Below are positions 23,149-30,833 of a DNA stretch of 64,000 nt, in pieces (position 1 is the first letter of the stretch; every line of letters begins with the position of its first letter). Source of the DNA: a phage; the sequence record PZ445448.1; one strand, 5' to 3'. Below the pieces are notes generated by a model that worked only from the letters and a program-made list of their open reading frames with translations, was not told the origin of the DNA and made no database searches. Both the position numbers and the translations under genes were made by a program.

Positions 23149-23442
23149 ATGCCACTTAAAAGAGTAATAAACATGTTATACCAGCAATATGAACTTCGTG
23201 CAGAAAAAGAGTTAAATTTTGACAAAGATATTCACAGATATTATTATGGGAAAGTTAGAGGGCAAGCAAGAAAGTGTACTCCAACACTCTTTTATGCCAG
23301 CAGACGACTAGCGCCAGAAGAGGCAACAGCAGAAAGGGTTGCATACAACTGGGAAGTTGTGTACGATATTGACAGATCCGATGTGATATCTGTTTTGGAA
23401 AACTTTGAAAACACTTACACACAAGTAGAGGACTTTTACTAA
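23149..23442 (+). CDS. hypothetical protein
   Basis: Start uncertain (ATG 23149 or 23173); ends in TAATG overlap with the ATPase gene. Confidence 0.4.
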   Translation: MPLKRVINMLYQQYELRAEKELNFDKDIHRYYYGKVRGQARKCTPTLFYASRRLAPEEATAERVAYNWEVVYDIDRSDVISVLENFENTYTQVEDFY

Positions 23443-24626
23443 TGTCAAGAAACGTATTTGAAAGTGGTCAAATCACTGTCCGTGAGTTGCCAGCTATCAT
23501 TCAGTTTGCCCAGCGTCATAACCGATCTGTCCTGATTTTAGGACCAATGGGTGTGGGAAAGAGTCAGGTGATGAAGCAGATCGCTGATAATATGTTCGGT
23601 GAGCGAGATGACAACCTGGTTGACGTGCGGCTGTCAGATAAAGATCCTGCCGACTTATCTGGGCTACCTATCCCTGTAGAAGCGGATGGGACTACACGTA
23701 CAGTGTTTGCAATCCCAGAATTTTGGCCTGCGGATCCTGACTGGAGCGGAATTGTCTTTCTGGATGAGCTCACTCATGCAGATAACTACCTGCAAAAGGT
23801 TGCAATGCAGATTATGCTCGACCACAAGTGCGGCACCTATGCATTCCCTAAGGGCTCTGTTTTTGTAGCTGCAGGTAACCGTTCTACAGATGGTGCTGTT
23901 CTTTCGGCGCTCGAAGCCCCTCTGGCTAACCGCTTTATCATTGTAGAAGTTACAAGCAACGCAGAGGTGTTTATTGAGGACTACGCATTCCTTAATGGGG
24001 TGCACTCCTCTGTAATTGGATATCTGAAAAGAGTTCCATCAGCTATTGATAATTATGAGGCCATGGCTGAGATTAATTGTCCATCTTTTGCCACACCGCG
24101 ATCTTGGGTTGCTGCATCTGATATCTTGCACGATTTTGACAGCGGTATTATTTCTGACGCTATGGCCCGTGTTCTTCTACAAGGTGCTATTGGTCACACT
24201 GCAGCGGTAGAGATCTGGACTTACCACACCAAGAAACGCAACTTACCGGAAATCGGTCGGATTATGGCAGGAGGTTGCAAAGAATACGTAGGCCCTAAAC
24301 AGCCAGACATCTTGTGGATTCTTGGATCTGAAGGTTGTATCGCTATTCGTAATATGATGGAAAATGCAAGTATCTCCGACGAAGATCTTGTTAGCTGTGT
24401 GGCAAACTTCCTCGATTTCCTTTGGGAAAACTTCAAGGACGAGAACCGAGATTTTGTATTCTCAGTCTTTATGGCGATGATGAAACCTAATGCCTTAGGA
24501 AATGCCTTGCTTATCGGTAAAGGGCGTGACAAGATTGTTGCTCAGCTGATCAAAGCATACCCAAACCTGATGAAGATTGTAAAAGAGTTTGGTGAAGAGT
24601 TTAGCGCCATTTTGGCTAAAGCTTAA
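23442..24626 (+). CDS. MoxR-like AAA+ ATPase
   Basis: Walker A ILGPMGVGKSQV; Walker B IVFLDELTHA; size (394 aa) fits the MoxR/CobS class. Confidence 0.7.
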   Translation: MSRNVFESGQITVRELPAIIQFAQRHNRSVLILGPMGVGKSQVMKQIADNMFGERDDNLVDVRLSDKDPADLSGLPIPVEADGTTRTVFAIPEFWPADPDWSGIVFLDELTHADNYLQKVAMQIMLDHKCGTYAFPKGSVFVAAGNRSTDGAVLSALEAPLANRFIIVEVTSNAEVFIEDYAFLNGVHSSVIGYLKRVPSAIDNYEAMAEINCPSFATPRSWVAASDILHDFDSGIISDAMARVLLQGAIGHTAAVEIWTYHTKKRNLPEIGRIMAGGCKEYVGPKQPDILWILGSEGCIAIRNMMENASISDEDLVSCVANFLDFLWENFKDENRDFVFSVFMAMMKPNALGNALLIGKGRDKIVAQLIKAYPNLMKIVKEFGEEFSAILAKA

Positions 24627-24636
24627 GGGGGGTTGT

Positions 24637-25017
24637 ATGGCTAAAGTAGGTAAGCGGGGAAACTACCTGGTGGTATTGACCGAGGAGCCGGAGAAGGAGT
24701 ACGAATGCAGCTCCACTTGCGTGATCGATATCCGAGAAAAAGATGTAGATGAAGTCTGGTTTAAAATATTGGACGCTTGCGATAGCAGTGATTATTTCTT
24801 CATCTATGTCAACGATAAGGCTGGGTTCTTCCATGACGACGGAGAGTTGCCGTATGAAATCTATGAACTTGTAGAGGCTTGCCATCGTGGAGATGCGGAG
24901 TTGTTTGGCTTACGGCTGAAAAGCGGTAAATTCTTCTATCAAGATGAGTGCATGAATCTTCATAACTTTGTAGAGGGAACTTGCAACGATGGAGAGATTT
25001 TGGCACACTACGATTAA
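24637..25017 (+). CDS. hypothetical protein (126 aa)
   Basis: ATG after AAGGGGGG. Confidence 0.5.
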   Translation: MAKVGKRGNYLVVLTEEPEKEYECSSTCVIDIREKDVDEVWFKILDACDSSDYFFIYVNDKAGFFHDDGELPYEIYELVEACHRGDAELFGLRLKSGKFFYQDECMNLHNFVEGTCNDGEILAHYD

Positions 25018-25027
25018 TTTCTAAGAC

Positions 25028-25056
25028 CTCCCCCGCTTCGGCGGGGATTTTCTATT
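25028..25056 (+). terminator. rho-independent terminator
   Basis: CCCCCGC-ttcg-GCGGGG followed by ATTTTCTATTT. Confidence 0.5.
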
Positions 25057-25066
25057 TGGAGTTATT

Positions 25067-25567
25067 GTGAAAATTAAGATCTTTGCTATTATTTTGAGCG
25101 CATTTTTATCGCTGCCTGTTGTTGCAGCACCAAAACAAAAAGTATACCATACTTGCAAGCCATCAGATACTAAGGAAAACATTCTAGCATGCAATATCTA
25201 CAGGGAAGCTAGAGGGGATGGCACGATGGGTATGCTGGCATCTGGGTTTGCCACCCTAAACAGGAAATCTCACCCCAAATACCCAGACACCATAAGAAAG
25301 ATTGTCTACCAACCTAACCAGTTTTCGTGGACAAACCACGGCAAAACTTTTAAGGTGACAGAAAAAGATTCATGGGATCACGCTAAAAGTCTTGCAAAGA
25401 TGCTTCTAAAGGTCTATAATAACAACCATGTTGCATACATGGCTATGGACATAACAGGTGGAGCAACACACTACCATACAACCAAAGTACGACCGAAATG
25501 GGCAAAAAAGATGCAGAGGACAGCTCAATTCGGGAGTCATATCTACTACAAGGAGCGCAATAAATGA
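25067..25567 (+). CDS. secreted SleB-type cell wall hydrolase
   Basis: GTG start; N-terminal signal-peptide-like KIKIFAIILSAFLSLPVVAAP; motif YREARGDG...LNRKSHPKYPDTIRKIVYQPNQFSW typical of the SleB/CwlJ hydrolase family. Confidence 0.65.
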   Translation: MKIKIFAIILSAFLSLPVVAAPKQKVYHTCKPSDTKENILACNIYREARGDGTMGMLASGFATLNRKSHPKYPDTIRKIVYQPNQFSWTNHGKTFKVTEKDSWDHAKSLAKMLLKVYNNNHVAYMAMDITGGATHYHTTKVRPKWAKKMQRTAQFGSHIYYKERNK

Positions 25568-27546
25568 TTGTAAACAGTAATGAAACTAAAGCAGTACTAA
25601 CCGGAAATATGGAGGTCACCAGGGGCTCAATTTCTCTGAACAAAGAGACTTTTGGGCTAATCATTAAAGGGATTTACGAAGATAAGGTGCTGGCAAGCTG
25701 CCGTGAACCAATCTTCAATGCTGTGGACTCTCATGTTGAGTCTGGACGGGGTGATGTACCGATCATCATTCACTCCCCTACAGACCTTGAACCATACTTC
25801 TTTGTGCAGGACGTTGGATTGGGTATGTCAGAAGAGATGGTCCGCAACACTTTCATGAACCTCGGGGAGTCAACCAAGCGCAACAGCAACGCTCTGGTAG
25901 GTAATAAAGGTGTAGGTTCAAAGGCCCCGTTCAGCATGGTGGACACTTTCGATGTGATTAGTGTGCACAACGGTGTTGAAAGCACATATCTATTGTTCTT
26001 GGATCAGGGTATCCCAAACGTTACCAAGATCCGCGAGCGGAAGACTGAAGAGCACAACGGGGTAAAAGTTCAGTTCCATGTTAAGAAAGAGCATGTCCTG
26101 AAATATCGCACTGCTATTGCATCGTGCTTACGCTATGCGAAGTTTCCGTTCATCGTCACCGATCCCATGACCAGTAAGATGTTAGAAGGTGACAAGGTTG
26201 AGGCACAGTATCATTACGAGAAGGATGGCTGGAAAATGACCATCCTGAAAGGTTATACCAGTTCTGATGAGAGCCGTGTTGTGATGGGTCACCAACCTTA
26301 CCGCTCCAAGTTCCTGGAGACATTGACCGATTACCCTGCAATCTGCGTGGAAATTCCTATTGGGGATTGCAATATTAACCCTGGGCGTGAATGGACCATA
26401 GAGGGCCATGACGACGGTGGATTCCAGGATCGCCTGGAGGCATTTGTCAAAGAAGGTATACGTCTTCGCGGGGCAGAAGTTGTTGCAGAACTGGAGACGG
26501 CAAAAACCTCCGCAGAAGCACGTGAAATGATGAAGAATAGTGGAGTGTTCGGACACATCTTCGGCAAGAACTTTATGTGGAACCGTTGGGAAGAAACAGG
26601 GCTTGGCGACTTAGGCGATTGTGAAATTTTCGCTGGCGGCTTAAATAAAGGCCGCATAGGTTATGCTTGTTACGGAAAGTCGGAGTTCTTACGAGGTGTA
26701 TACCTTGTATTTAACGACGGAGACGGCAAATATAACCGGAATAAGTGTAACTACTTAAGCGAGATCACCGGACGCAACGTTTTCTATTGCCGGAACACGG
26801 ATCTGGTGAAAGAGTTTAAAGAGGCGGCACACCATCCGTTCTTTGCAGATACGGTCAAATTGTTATCGGAGCTTCCACGCCGACCTGCGAAGAAAGGTGA
26901 AACCAAAACTCGTTACGAGCCAGGCTACTGGGTTAAGAAGCTTAGAGAGGATGGCTACTTCCATCGTGAGCGCCTCACGAAGGCAGAGTTCAAGAAGATT
27001 AAGCATTGCATCCCTTATGAGGGGGATATCCAACGGGGAAGCTGCTGGCTGGGCCAGATGAGTAACATCTACCAGCAAAATTATGACCGTGTGCGTGCTG
27101 CACTCCAGATTCCTGAAGGTGAAGATCTGTACCTGGTATCAGAATCTCGTCTGCTTTGGACTGATCCTGATTGCCAGTATGTTACAGAGAAGAATGTGGA
27201 ACATTTGTTGAAAGAGGATGCTTGGAAATTCTTACTGACTCGCGCAGCAAATGAAACTTCATATGACAGCCTGTATAGACAATTAGGGAAAATTATCCCC
27301 ATGCAGGATTTTGGAAATTATCGGCCACATTTCCACAAGTGGGAAGGTAACACCGCGTGGAAGCACAGTGAGCTAAATCATCGTGCCAAAATCTTAATCG
27401 CCAACCGGGTTAAGTGCGGGAAGGCCTATATTGCAAGATTGGAAAAGAAATATCCACTTTTGAAACATGTGGGCTTGAAATATTGGGACACTCCTGCTAT
27501 GATTGAATACCGTGAACTGATCGATACAAAGAATAACATCAAATAA
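25564..27546 (+). CDS. GHKL-family (Bergerat fold) ATPase, rIIA-like
   Basis: N box REPIFNAVDSH, G1 box VQDVGLGMS, G2 box GNKGVGSKAPF; 660 aa; phage rIIA proteins carry this fold. Confidence 0.6.
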   Translation: MIVNSNETKAVLTGNMEVTRGSISLNKETFGLIIKGIYEDKVLASCREPIFNAVDSHVESGRGDVPIIIHSPTDLEPYFFVQDVGLGMSEEMVRNTFMNLGESTKRNSNALVGNKGVGSKAPFSMVDTFDVISVHNGVESTYLLFLDQGIPNVTKIRERKTEEHNGVKVQFHVKKEHVLKYRTAIASCLRYAKFPFIVTDPMTSKMLEGDKVEAQYHYEKDGWKMTILKGYTSSDESRVVMGHQPYRSKFLETLTDYPAICVEIPIGDCNINPGREWTIEGHDDGGFQDRLEAFVKEGIRLRGAEVVAELETAKTSAEAREMMKNSGVFGHIFGKNFMWNRWEETGLGDLGDCEIFAGGLNKGRIGYACYGKSEFLRGVYLVFNDGDGKYNRNKCNYLSEITGRNVFYCRNTDLVKEFKEAAHHPFFADTVKLLSELPRRPAKKGETKTRYEPGYWVKKLREDGYFHRERLTKAEFKKIKHCIPYEGDIQRGSCWLGQMSNIYQQNYDRVRAALQIPEGEDLYLVSESRLLWTDPDCQYVTEKNVEHLLKEDAWKFLLTRAANETSYDSLYRQLGKIIPMQDFGNYRPHFHKWEGNTAWKHSELNHRAKILIANRVKCGKAYIARLEKKYPLLKHVGLKYWDTPAMIEYRELIDTKNNIK

Positions 27547-27556
27547 GGAGACCAAG

Positions 27557-28762
27557 ATGATTTTCATCTACGAACATTTCAAAACCCGTAAAGAAGCACG
27601 AGACCGCCGTGCAGAACTTGAGAAGAAGGGTTTCACATGTGCCATTGAGAAAGGCGACACAACCTGGACACTGGCAGTTGGTGCCCCAGAGTTGTTCGAT
27701 CCTGACCGTGACAGCGTCTGCTACACCCGTGAGGATTTTGAAACCCGCGAAGAGGCCCGTTTATTTCGATACGGTCTGGAAGATAACGGTAAGTACGCTA
27801 TGATCTTAGATTTAGGCGAAGGTTCCGTTAAACGTTGGGGCGTGGTATACCCACTGTGTGTTGTTCACGGTGTGGGGTTCACTGGGGTAGCAATCAAGTC
27901 AGAAGAACCTTTAGTAGAAGTCAAAGATCCGGTGCTGGAGGTGGTGAGCAGTGTGTCTCAGCAACAGACTCGAAGCATCGAGCCTTTGGTAGTTATTTGT
28001 GGGGAACTCCTCCAGATCACCTGCAACGAAGGCATTTTTGAAATTCGCCGCAGCGAAAGTGAGGAAGTTTACCAGAAAGTCTTCGACCATATCTCTGTTC
28101 AGGAATATGATGAGGCAATTGGTGAAATCCTTGTCTGGCTGGAACGCAAGAATGAGTTCACCACACTTGCAGACAACCTGATCATGAAAGATGGTAAGCT
28201 CTACTACTACGGTGTAGAGATGCGATCCACCATTGCAAAGAAAATTGAGAAAGATTATGCAGACGGAACGCTGGATGACCGCTATGTGAAATTCCTCGTT
28301 CGCCTGCTACGCAATCCTTCTGCAAAATCTGTAAACATGCTCTACGATTTTATGCAGGCCAACGATATCCAGATTGCAGAAGATGGTCGAATCATTTGCT
28401 ACAAAGGGGTTCAGTTTAACGGCAGCAAGTGGGTAGATTGGCACAGTGGTAAAGTTCCACAATACCAGGGTGCTTTTGTATCCATGCCTCGTAACTTTGT
28501 AGAGGATGATCCGGAAGCTGCGTGCTCCTATGGCTTACACTGCGCCAGCAAAGAGTATGCAAAGAGCTACGGCACTGTAATGACTGTCATGGTTGACCCT
28601 GCAGATGTGGTTAGTGTGCCATACCAACACAATAGCGCCAAGTGCCGTGCATGCCGCTATGAGATTGTGGTAGCTCCGGAAGCACGCAAAGATGGAGACC
28701 CTATTGAATATGTAGTTGATCGTGACGGTAACACTATCGACATTCTTTACGAGGAGGCGTAA
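27557..28762 (+). CDS. hypothetical protein with N-terminal internal repeat (rIIB-like by position only)
   Basis: RBS AAGGAGACC; two repeats FKTRKEARDRRAELEKKG / FETREEARLFRYGLEDNG; directly after GHKL ATPase. Confidence 0.45.
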   Translation: MIFIYEHFKTRKEARDRRAELEKKGFTCAIEKGDTTWTLAVGAPELFDPDRDSVCYTREDFETREEARLFRYGLEDNGKYAMILDLGEGSVKRWGVVYPLCVVHGVGFTGVAIKSEEPLVEVKDPVLEVVSSVSQQQTRSIEPLVVICGELLQITCNEGIFEIRRSESEEVYQKVFDHISVQEYDEAIGEILVWLERKNEFTTLADNLIMKDGKLYYYGVEMRSTIAKKIEKDYADGTLDDRYVKFLVRLLRNPSAKSVNMLYDFMQANDIQIAEDGRIICYKGVQFNGSKWVDWHSGKVPQYQGAFVSMPRNFVEDDPEAACSYGLHCASKEYAKSYGTVMTVMVDPADVVSVPYQHNSAKCRACRYEIVVAPEARKDGDPIEYVVDRDGNTIDILYEEA

Positions 28763-30132
28763 TGGAAAAAGGGCAGTATGATGTAGGCACAGATGCTGCC
28801 CTCGTTGCAATCATGAGCGGTGAGAATGTCTTCGTTTCAGGACCTGCAGGTTGTGGGAAGACGTATCTCATCAACATGATCCAGTCGATGTATGGAGACT
28901 CTTGCATAACGGTTGCCCCGACAGGGGTAGCCGCTTTAAACGTTAATGGAGCAACAGCACACCGAACCTTCGATCTTGCAGCAGGTGTGAGCATGGAGTC
29001 AGACTGGACCGCAATAAGGGCAAAAACAGCAAAGCCTTTGAAAAGCAAGGCATTTACCATCCTAATTATCGATGAAATCTCTATGATCCGTGCTGATAAG
29101 TTTATAGAGATGGATAGGAAACTCCGCTTCCTTCGAAAAAATGACAAACCTTTCGGAGGCATACAGGTCATATTGTTTGGCGATTTTTACCAGGCACCTC
29201 CTGTTGTCTCTTCTATGGAGAAGGAAGCCTACTTCAACTTCTACCATACGGACCTGTGTTGCTATACCGAATCTTGGAAAGAGCTTGACCTCCACAACAT
29301 AGCCCTAATAGATCAGTTCCGACAGGAGTCTATTCGATTTGCTACAATGCTCAACTGTGTTCGTGAGGGTCGTCGCATAAAAGAGGTTGTAGCAGAACTT
29401 AATGCTCGCTGTTACAAAGGAGGTGTACCAACAGACGCTCTCACAATTTGCGCCACCAACAAACAAGCAGAGGAAGTGAACAGAAGGTTCTATGATGCCA
29501 TCAACGCCCCAGAGAAGGTATACACTGGTGAAATGAAGGGTAAGTTTCCCTCCACCCTGCCAGTTGAGCAGGAGATGAAGTTGAAAATTGGCATGAAAGT
29601 TATGATAACCGCCAACGATGTTGACCCGACGCACAAAGTACCTTATTATGTTAACGGAACACGTGCCACAATTGTTAAATTTAAGAACAAGGCGGTGGTG
29701 GTAGAGCTTGAAGATGGAACACAGGTTGACATAGAGCAGAGGTTGTGGGAGAATAACGAGTATAAGCCATCTCAGAGATACAACATTGCAGAAAGGAAGA
29801 TGGAGAAGTTTATAGAGAGGGTAGTGATTGGGTCATACAGGCAACTTCCTCTGAAATCTGGGTACGCCGTAACATCTCATAAAAGTCAAGGACTTACACT
29901 AGATTGTTACAACCTAGACCTTGGAAAGAACGGAGCTTTCTCTCCTGGGATGACGTATGTCGCTTTGAGTAGAGTTAAGACAATACAAGGAATAAACTTG
30001 TTGCGTCCACTAAGAGAAGTTGACATTATTGTTGACCCGCGAGTCGTAGAGTTTTACAATACAACATTCCCTGACTTAGACAAAATTGTCAGGAAAGATT
30101 TTGAAACCAGAGCAGAAGAGGGGGACGTATGA
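28762..30132 (+). CDS. Dda/RecD/Pif1-like SF1 DNA helicase
   Basis: Walker A VSGPAGCGKTYLIN; Walker B LIIDEISM; C-terminal VTSHKSQGLTLD and YVALSRVK motifs. Confidence 0.7.
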   Translation: MEKGQYDVGTDAALVAIMSGENVFVSGPAGCGKTYLINMIQSMYGDSCITVAPTGVAALNVNGATAHRTFDLAAGVSMESDWTAIRAKTAKPLKSKAFTILIIDEISMIRADKFIEMDRKLRFLRKNDKPFGGIQVILFGDFYQAPPVVSSMEKEAYFNFYHTDLCCYTESWKELDLHNIALIDQFRQESIRFATMLNCVREGRRIKEVVAELNARCYKGGVPTDALTICATNKQAEEVNRRFYDAINAPEKVYTGEMKGKFPSTLPVEQEMKLKIGMKVMITANDVDPTHKVPYYVNGTRATIVKFKNKAVVVELEDGTQVDIEQRLWENNEYKPSQRYNIAERKMEKFIERVVIGSYRQLPLKSGYAVTSHKSQGLTLDCYNLDLGKNGAFSPGMTYVALSRVKTIQGINLLRPLREVDIIVDPRVVEFYNTTFPDLDKIVRKDFETRAEEGDV

Positions 30133-30470: not shown

Positions 30471-30530
30471 TAAGATGTGAGCATAAAGGGGAGGCACTCC
30501 TCCCCACAAAAACTAAGGAAGCACTAAACG

Positions 30531-30833
30531 ATGAAACGTTATAAACCATACACTTTTGAAATCGATTTCGAACTTGACGATATGTTTACTGTGGAAGCTC
30601 AGGCAGTTGTCCAGTTGCCAGACTCGGAGTGCCGTGACTCTGATGTTGACTATTACGGGTTTAGACAAATTACCGATGTGCGTGTTTACCACAACGGTGA
30701 AGAGGTGGACTTCCACCAACTGCCAAACGATATGCGCCACTCAATTTACAAACGTGCAGCCCGTGAACTAGAGTCCTATCTGGATGCAGCGACGACAGCA
30801 GCTGCATTTGCTGAAGAAGTGGGAGGTTTCTGA
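30531..30833 (+). CDS. hypothetical protein (100 aa)
   Basis: ATG after CTAAGGAAGC. Confidence 0.5.
   Translation: MKRYKPYTFEIDFELDDMFTVEAQAVVQLPDSECRDSDVDYYGFRQITDVRVYHNGEEVDFHQLPNDMRHSIYKRAARELESYLDAATTAAAFAEEVGGF

Follow-up and report, generated by a model that had tools for sequence, protein, structure and literature searches.

A Vequintavirus rIIA/rIIB pair with a probable counter-defence role against Rex-type abortive infection and a lineage-specific tandem repeat at the rIIB N-terminus

The rII genes of phage T4 encode rIIA, a protein of 725 amino acids (aa) with an N-terminal GHKL domain, and rIIB, a protein of 312 aa. The rIIA gene lies immediately upstream of rIIB, and the pair sits beside topoisomerase gene 60 and the denB/ndd genes. 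The label "lysis inhibitor" is historical and goes back to the plaques of T4 r mutants, which are of the rapid-lysis type. In classical T4 genetics, the r1589 deletion is said to leave B function intact although the beginning of the B cistron is removed. Here, we analysed two adjacent genes on the + strand of a 64,000-nucleotide (nt) stretch of phage DNA (record PZ445448.1; hereafter "the window"), which encode proteins of 660 aa (25,564–27,546) and 401 aa (27,557–28,762). An initial annotation, made from the sequence alone, had read these genes as an rIIA-like GHKL ATPase and a candidate rIIB partner, and both open reading frames (ORFs) were confirmed exactly where it had placed them.

Orthologues of rIIA combine a GHKL ATPase domain with a variable C-terminal domain (Iyer et al, PMC7824862). 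The role of the pair in infection has been addressed by CRISPRi-ART knock-down of RIIA or RIIB in T4, MM02, EdH4, SUSP1, and N4; that study reports that infection of Rex- hosts was not inhibited and that the same knock-downs reduced the efficiency of plating on lambda RexAB+ Escherichia coli (PMC11879866). RexA binds DNA and works in concert with RexB, a membrane protein (PMC11077077). RexAB restricts only a few phages, and wild-type Vequintavirinae do not belong to them (PMC8594841).

The region containing the pair (25,000–29,000) was most similar to that of Escherichia phage EduardKellenberger, with 99.5% identity, and identities ranged from 97.4 to 99.5% among the best 25 of 120 matching phage records. 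Nearly all of the matching records belong to the genus Vequintavirus, which comprises rV5-like myoviruses of E. coli; on these matches, we assign the source of the window to the same genus. EdH4 and other Vequintavirus phages, including rV5, Murica, slur16, and the BASEL phages EduardKellenberger and DrSchubert, carry the same genes in the same order and with the same neighbours, and their proteins differ from the window pair by a few amino-acid substitutions only. In EdH4, 652 of 660 residues of rIIA (EdH4_00063; 99%) and 391 of 401 residues of rIIB (EdH4_00062; 98%) are identical to those of the window proteins. The pair was found in more than 100 Vequintavirus records, many of them annotated rIIA/rIIB, under labels such as "RIIA protector from prophage-induced early lysis" with "rIIB protein", "rIIA/rIIB lysis inhibitor", and "membrane integrity protector". 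The pair is therefore ordinary and already known, with annotations in more than 100 genomes and a functional test in a phage that is almost identical. The initial annotation had considered it of interest as a divergent pair; an rIIA/rIIB pair it is, but its divergence and unstudied status were overrated, since the 98–99% identical pair of EdH4 has already been tested.

The 660 aa protein (75.8 kDa, isoelectric point 8.2) showed its best match to phrog_612, "RIIA lysis inhibitor" (E 3.8e-124), with residues 1–658 covering profile positions 1–724. This result bears out the rIIA-type identity proposed in the initial annotation. T4 rIIA belongs to the same PHROG, also over its full length (E 9e-250), the window protein being 65 aa shorter. 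The C-terminal, non-ATPase 460 aa (residues 201–660) matched phrog_612 when searched alone (E 1.4e-34, profile positions 202–724). Pairwise similarity to T4 rIIA was detectable by BLASTP in the ATPase domain only, that is, in the first ~200 aa (T4 aa 1–196; 28% identity, E 3e-21).

The GHKL (Bergerat-fold) ATPase domain of this protein spans about aa 1–200 (25,564–26,163, +) and contains a match to Pfam HATPase_c_3 at aa 50–147, which scored 34.9 bits against a cut-off of 25 bits. All three boxes of this fold, as listed in the initial annotation, were located by regular expressions on the translation, and their residues align with those of T4 rIIA. The N box, E48-PIFNAV-D55 (25,705–25,728, +), aligns with RELITNMID of the T4 protein, the G1 box, D83-VGLGM88 (25,810–25,827, +), with DFGPGM, and the G2 box, G113-NKGVG118 (25,900–25,917, +), with GGFGLG. 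The hydropathy maximum of the protein is 0.83. Judged from its sequence, this is a complete rIIA protein, predicted to be soluble or peripheral, with intact GHKL ATP-binding motifs. A PDB sequence search found no solved relative of either rIIA or rIIB.

We also considered the reading of the 660 aa protein as another GHKL enzyme, such as MutL, GyrB/topoisomerase, Hsp90, a histidine kinase, or a MORC-like protein, that merely resembles rIIA. The generic HATPase_c_3 match and the marginal matches to the HSP90 family, sacsin, and TRAP1 would suit such an enzyme. However, the matches to HSP90, TRAP1, sacsin, and a restriction enzyme reached only E 1e-3 to 0.1 and lay hundreds of bits under the NCBIfam cut-offs: the NCBIfam HSP90 family scored 17.8 bits against a cut-off of 455, and TRAP1, the best PDB sequence match, had an E value of 0.1. 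The Pfam scan of rIIA detected no transducer, Toprim, MutL C-terminal, or HisKA domain, whereas the match to the rIIA PHROG spanned the entire protein, with the 460 aa outside the ATPase domain. MutL, GyrB, Hsp90, and histidine kinase identities were thus rejected, as no family-specific domain was found and none of these families gave the best profile match, and we give this reading virtually no credence. The initial annotation had itself pointed to a best match with MutL, GyrB, or a histidine kinase as grounds for abandoning the rIIA assignment, and no such family was matched.

For the 401 aa protein (45.8 kDa, isoelectric point 4.9), the initial annotation had relied on gene position only. 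The assignment to rIIB now stands on homology, because residues 132–375 match phrog_609 (RIIB; E 1.3e-61), the PHROG to which T4 rIIB also belongs (E 6.6e-111), and because BLASTP aligned the protein to T4 rIIB residues 107–304 (~200 aa) with 37% identity (E 4e-39). A lack of rIIB similarity, which would have spoken against the pairing, was therefore not observed. A database protein that is 100% identical to this rIIB (P0001) has a precomputed match to Pfam PF26926 (Phage_T4_rIIB). Thus the T4 and window proteins share a core of ~200–245 aa, 37% identical and covered by PHROG 609 and PF26926, and both keep the motifs NPSxK, GLH, VxPxDVVSxP, and C-x-Y-E.

In the AlphaFold2 model of rIIB, which was built with 16 homologues and has a mean predicted local distance difference test (pLDDT) score of 72, the conserved core (aa 142–387; 27,980–28,717, +) is well predicted over aa 144–387, with pLDDT mostly 78–94. 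Two regions of this core deserve mention. The residues C323, H328, C363, and C366 (window ~28,523–28,657) are invariant in all 16 aligned homologues, and the alignment with T4 rIIB keeps the first cysteine, the histidine, and the last cysteine of this set; these residues could be a metal-binding or catalytic site. The loop that carries D219 in T2 and S219 in T4, the residue that decides Tmn activation, adjoins a 3-aa insertion in the window rIIB, as read from the BLASTP alignment. We also identified a 498 aa protein on a 3.3 kb ENA contig (P0005), in which a TPR-repeat N-terminus leads, at "...QEYDEAIGEILVW", into an rIIB core that shares 99% identity with that of the window. Because it comes from a single short contig, this protein is most likely an assembly chimera.

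By analogy with the 98–99% identical proteins of EdH4, rIIA and rIIB of the window would not be required on plain E. coli K-12, but the phage would need both to plate normally on lambda RexAB cells. Plaque assays on hosts with Rex-like exclusion had been suggested in the initial annotation, and they have in effect been published as the EdH4 knock-downs, in an account that treats five phages together. Because the pair is expected to be dispensable on K-12 yet needed on RexAB cells, we read it as the rIIA/rIIB module of a Vequintavirus that acts as a counter-defence against Rex-type abortive infection, with the mechanism and the accessory rIIB N-terminus set out below, and we place the probability of this reading at roughly 0.8. 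PADLOC, which was run on both proteins, has no defence-system model that matches rIIA or rIIB.

In the mechanism that we propose, the two proteins cooperate: rIIA would be a GHKL clamp or switch driven by ATP, and the core of rIIB would be its partner. The rII proteins would act at the interface between replication and the membrane, where they would prevent RexA from being activated by the infection signal, which is probably a DNA-protein intermediate of the phage; the RexB channel would then stay closed. The N-terminus of rIIB would serve as a lineage-specific accessory module, HTH-like (helix-turn-helix) in T4 and made of tandem mini-domains in Vequintavirus. Because the T4 and Vequintavirus architectures both defeat the same RexAB, the N-terminus is presumably not what defines anti-Rex activity, which should therefore reside in the conserved parts of the proteins. 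The behaviour ascribed to the T4 r1589 deletion would agree with this view. For the rII mechanism, attention should thus go to the rIIA GHKL domain and the C-terminal rIIB core, whereas the N-terminal module of rIIB is a candidate determinant of lineage-specific interactions.

Several points weigh against this reading. The CRISPRi-ART result is given as a joint summary for five phages rather than a result for EdH4 alone (PMC11879866). T4 rII exclusion is lost in RexA mutants regardless of whether their DNA binding is enhanced, impaired, or abolished (PMC11077077), and the nature of the RexA trigger is accordingly uncertain. Hydropathy analysis identified no transmembrane segment in rIIA or rIIB, and any membrane association would need to be peripheral. 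Finally, rIIB is the trigger sensed by the Lysobacter gasdermin/CARD system (PMC10312443) and by Tmn (PMC13001434). Because these two systems are also triggered by rIIB, its cellular activity may be broader than the antagonism of Rex.

Another possibility, which we regard as doubtful, is that the pair functions primarily in phage DNA replication or recombination by tethering the replisome to the inner membrane, with Rex resistance as a side effect. In the Tmn preprint, RIIB figures as part of the replisome, which it anchors to the membrane (PMC13001434); rIIB is classed with transcription factors by Iyer et al (PMC7824862), and the N-terminus of T4 rIIB is HTH-like. The genomic setting also fits, with DNA-metabolism genes as neighbours: a Dda/Pif1-like helicase gene follows immediately, its start overlapping the rIIB stop, and DNA methyltransferases lie further on. 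On the other hand, the HTH is absent from this rIIB, and knock-down of rIIA or rIIB in five phages, EdH4 included, is reported to leave Rex- infection unimpaired. Because the knock-downs do not impair Rex- infection, a replication role would, on that account, be dispensable in the laboratory.

The two rIIB proteins differ most clearly at the N-terminus. Where T4 rIIB has an HTH-like segment (aa 7–50, for which several HTH families score just under their cut-offs), the window rIIB has 141 aa that would form two mini-domains and a disordered linker of ~40 aa; in the Pfam scan, this N-terminus matched no HTH family. It contains the two-copy F-x-T-R-x-E-A-R...L-E-x-x-G repeat noticed in the initial annotation, with the first copy at F8-K-T-R-K-E-A-R15...L21-E-K-K-G25 and the second at F61-E-T-R-E-E-A-R68...L73-E-D-N-G77. 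The local alignment of the two copies scored 44, compared with 20.4 ± 4.0 for shuffled sequences, none of which reached 44 in 2,000 shuffles, and hhalign matched the profiles of copies 1 and 2 with a probability of 93.4% (E 2.5e-7). In homologues down to ~36% identity, R11, A14, R15, and W37 are invariant in copy 1, as are F61, R64, E66, A67, R68, F70, D85, R93, W94, and V96 in copy 2. The repeat is therefore a real, conserved duplication. Its motif, [FWY]x[ST]RxxAR, has no further occurrence when the window is translated in all six frames.

Each copy adopts a beta-alpha-beta-beta topology in the AlphaFold2 model. Copy 1 (aa 3–42; 27,563–27,682, +) is predicted to have strands at residues 3–8, 27–32, and 37–42 and a helix at 11–22, and copy 2 (aa 54–102; 27,716–27,862, +) to have strands at 54–61, 82–85, and 94–102 and a helix at 64–72. 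When the N-terminal 104 residues were modelled alone, the pLDDT was 80.7 and the topology was unchanged. The linker that follows (aa 103–141; 27,863–27,979, +) is predicted to be disordered, with pLDDT of 25–28 over aa 100–141; it is poorly conserved and varies in both length and sequence among the aligned homologues. According to this model, rIIB is composed of two beta-alpha-beta-beta mini-domains, a flexible linker, and the conserved core.

Profile searches drew the same boundary between N-terminus and core. Neither the N-terminal 104 aa nor the N-terminal 141 aa, searched alone, matched any rIIB PHROG, and the best PHROG match of this region was a sub-threshold one to phrog_4939, a family of unknown function. 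Four rIIB PHROGs other than phrog_609 match the window rIIB through the core only, at the C-terminal end of those profiles. The rIIB family thus seems to combine a constant core with an N-terminus that varies. We regard the description of the tandem mini-domain, as a clade-confined duplication in place of the T4-type HTH, as a small addition to what is known of the pair. The pair has a modest comparative value, as the same lambda RexAB is overcome both with rIIB of the HTH-core type (T4) and with rIIB of the tandem mini-domain-linker-core type (Vequintavirus).

The topology of the repeat recalls that of several small alpha/beta modules, and among these, SPOR (Pfam PF05036) would imply a peptidoglycan-binding domain that targets rIIB to the cell wall or the septum. 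A SPOR match was obtained for copy 1 only, at 19.3 bits against a cut-off of 21, and the homologues had none. The SPOR fold is a beta-alpha-beta-beta-alpha-beta, RNP-like arrangement of ~70 aa found in exported proteins, a description that the rIIB repeat does not fit. We therefore discarded the SPOR candidate, and we consider a cell wall-targeting role of the repeats highly improbable. The likeness of the repeat to de novo EHEE mini-proteins and to SPOR, CutA, and SirA-like modules is structural only.

Two further observations concern the second copy. A moderately hydrophobic stretch, GVVYPLCVVHGVGFTGVAI, runs from the last part of copy 2 into the linker (aa 95–113; window 27,839–27,895) and has a Kyte-Doolittle value of 1.69 over 19 residues. 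It is unlikely to be a membrane anchor, because its hydrophobicity is not kept in the clades at 49% and 35% identity. Separately, the C-terminal tail of the downstream helicase (window 30,097–30,116, +) ends with KDFETRAEEGDV, and the DNA encoding DFETRAE in this tail matches that encoding DFETREE at the start of copy 2 at 17 of 20 nt, in frame. The helicase tail is not conserved in the ~49% clade, and its likeness to copy 2 may be due to chance or to a lineage-specific micro-duplication.

All occurrences of the tandem module that we found lie in rIIB, either of Vequintavirinae or of related uncultured phages of ~140 kb. Its carriers comprise Vequintavirus, with at least 95% identity, a metagenomic clade with ~49% identity overall, and Mydovirus together with Klebsiella KP12-type phages, with ~35% identity. 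Searching aa 1–173 with tblastn against 50,697 phage records returned Vequintavirus only, at 95% identity or above. An exhaustive phmmer search of aa 1–110 against 1.8 billion representative sequences gave four matches and no credible case outside the clade: two of the matches belong to the same clade, one is a low-complexity, eukaryote-like repeat protein, and one is a marginal match to a Gram-positive surface protein. Profile searches with the single unit and with the tandem recovered same-clade fragments only, in runs of doubtful sensitivity that did not list the full-length rIIB homologues again.

An apparent stand-alone copy of the module (P0127) proved to be directly followed by an ORF for the core, and we therefore discarded it as an independent occurrence; it is the front half of a split rIIB. 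In this metagenomic relative (L005 5,001–6,217; Logan DRR174583), an ORF of 146 aa encodes the two mini-domains and overlaps by 7 nt an ORF of 260 aa that encodes the core (PF26926). The split must stem from an error (a frameshift or a fault of assembly) or else be a natural separation of module and core.

Tentatively, we hypothesise that the tandem is an undescribed, lineage-specific functional module of Vequintavirinae rIIB that replaces the T4-type HTH, with the signature [FWY]-x-[ST]-R-x-x-A-R ... R-W-x-V. The invariant arginines of such a module might serve to bind DNA or phospholipid as an anionic ligand, or the module might alter the visibility of rIIB to the host systems that sense it (gasdermin/CARD, Tmn). 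If this were so, N-terminal swapping in rIIB would be a record of an arms race around this protein.

The gene pair of the window is flanked by a cell wall hydrolase and a helicase, a setting different from that of the T4 pair. The upstream gene (25,067–25,567, +) encodes a SleB/CwlJ-type cell wall hydrolase (Pfam Hydrolase_2, E 2.1e-19) with an N-terminal signal-like segment (hydropathy 2.29 at aa 3–21), and its stop overlaps the start of rIIA by 4 nt (ATGA). The spacer between rIIA and rIIB is 10 nt long and contains AAGGAG; this Shine-Dalgarno sequence precedes the ATG of both genes by 7–8 nt. Downstream, the stop of rIIB overlaps by 1 nt (TAATG) the start of the gene for the Dda/Pif1-like helicase (28,762–30,132, +; Pfam PIF1, E 1.1e-32; phrog_325 Dda-like helicase, E 8.5e-112), which is followed by small ORFs and then a DNA methyltransferase. 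Upstream of the hydrolase, a terminator-like hairpin (25,031–25,046, +) consists of CCCCGCTTCGGCGGGG and a T-rich tail, and a putative terminator is annotated at the equivalent site in EdH4. Based on the 4-nt and 1-nt start/stop overlaps, the 10-nt AAGGAG spacer, and the hairpin, the hydrolase, rIIA, rIIB, and helicase genes form a tightly packed cluster that is probably co-transcribed. The hydrolase appears to be translationally coupled to rIIA, and the setting resembles an early or middle cluster of replication genes rather than a lysis cassette.

With a hydrolase gene that overlaps the start of rIIA, and with both families placed under "lysis" in PHROGs, the pair might be taken for literal lysis inhibitors that set the timing of holin and endolysin, the secreted hydrolase joining them in a lysis cassette. 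We consider this improbable. No holin-like gene adjoins the pair, and the knock-down phenotype is reported to be Rex-dependent. Moreover, the syntenic L005 locus, with rIIB ~49% identical to that of the window, has the order AAA ATPase, small ORF, rIIA, rIIB, helicase, and so keeps the pair and the helicase without the hydrolase gene. As the hydrolase has no counterpart there, it is not an obligatory partner of rIIA/rIIB.

Upstream of the hairpin, the region 23,442–24,626 (+) encodes a MoxR/CobS-like AAA+ ATPase (phrog_1297, E 2e-110) together with a 126 aa protein that has no assigned function (phrog_12370). In L005, ORFs of 397 aa and 121 aa, similar in size to this pair and with no Pfam match on record, precede rIIA in the same order. 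An Rfam scan of 20–34 kb of the window identified no RNA family, and the DNA repeats in this interval are short and chance-like, except for the in-frame repeat of rIIB. The promoter scan gave 24 hits against a shuffled expectation of 19.7 ± 4.1, which is no excess, and we claim no promoter.

Compared with phage naam, the window is missing a segment of ~1.33 kb (L001 9,537–10,869 in naam) that contains a putative adenine methyltransferase gene. The junction lies at ~30,526–30,534, ~1.8 kb downstream of the rII pair and between ORFs of 113 aa and 100 aa, and the homology flanks of the window overlap by ~9 nt at this point; a methylase gene is annotated at the same place in EdH4. The GenBank matches also included 16 unannotated records named "Campylobacter phage" (among MG065635–MG065690; host Campylobacter jejuni), and those among the best matches to the rII region are 97–99% identical to this region of an E. 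coli Vequintavirus. Such identity suggests that these records represent mislabelled or contaminant phage genomes.

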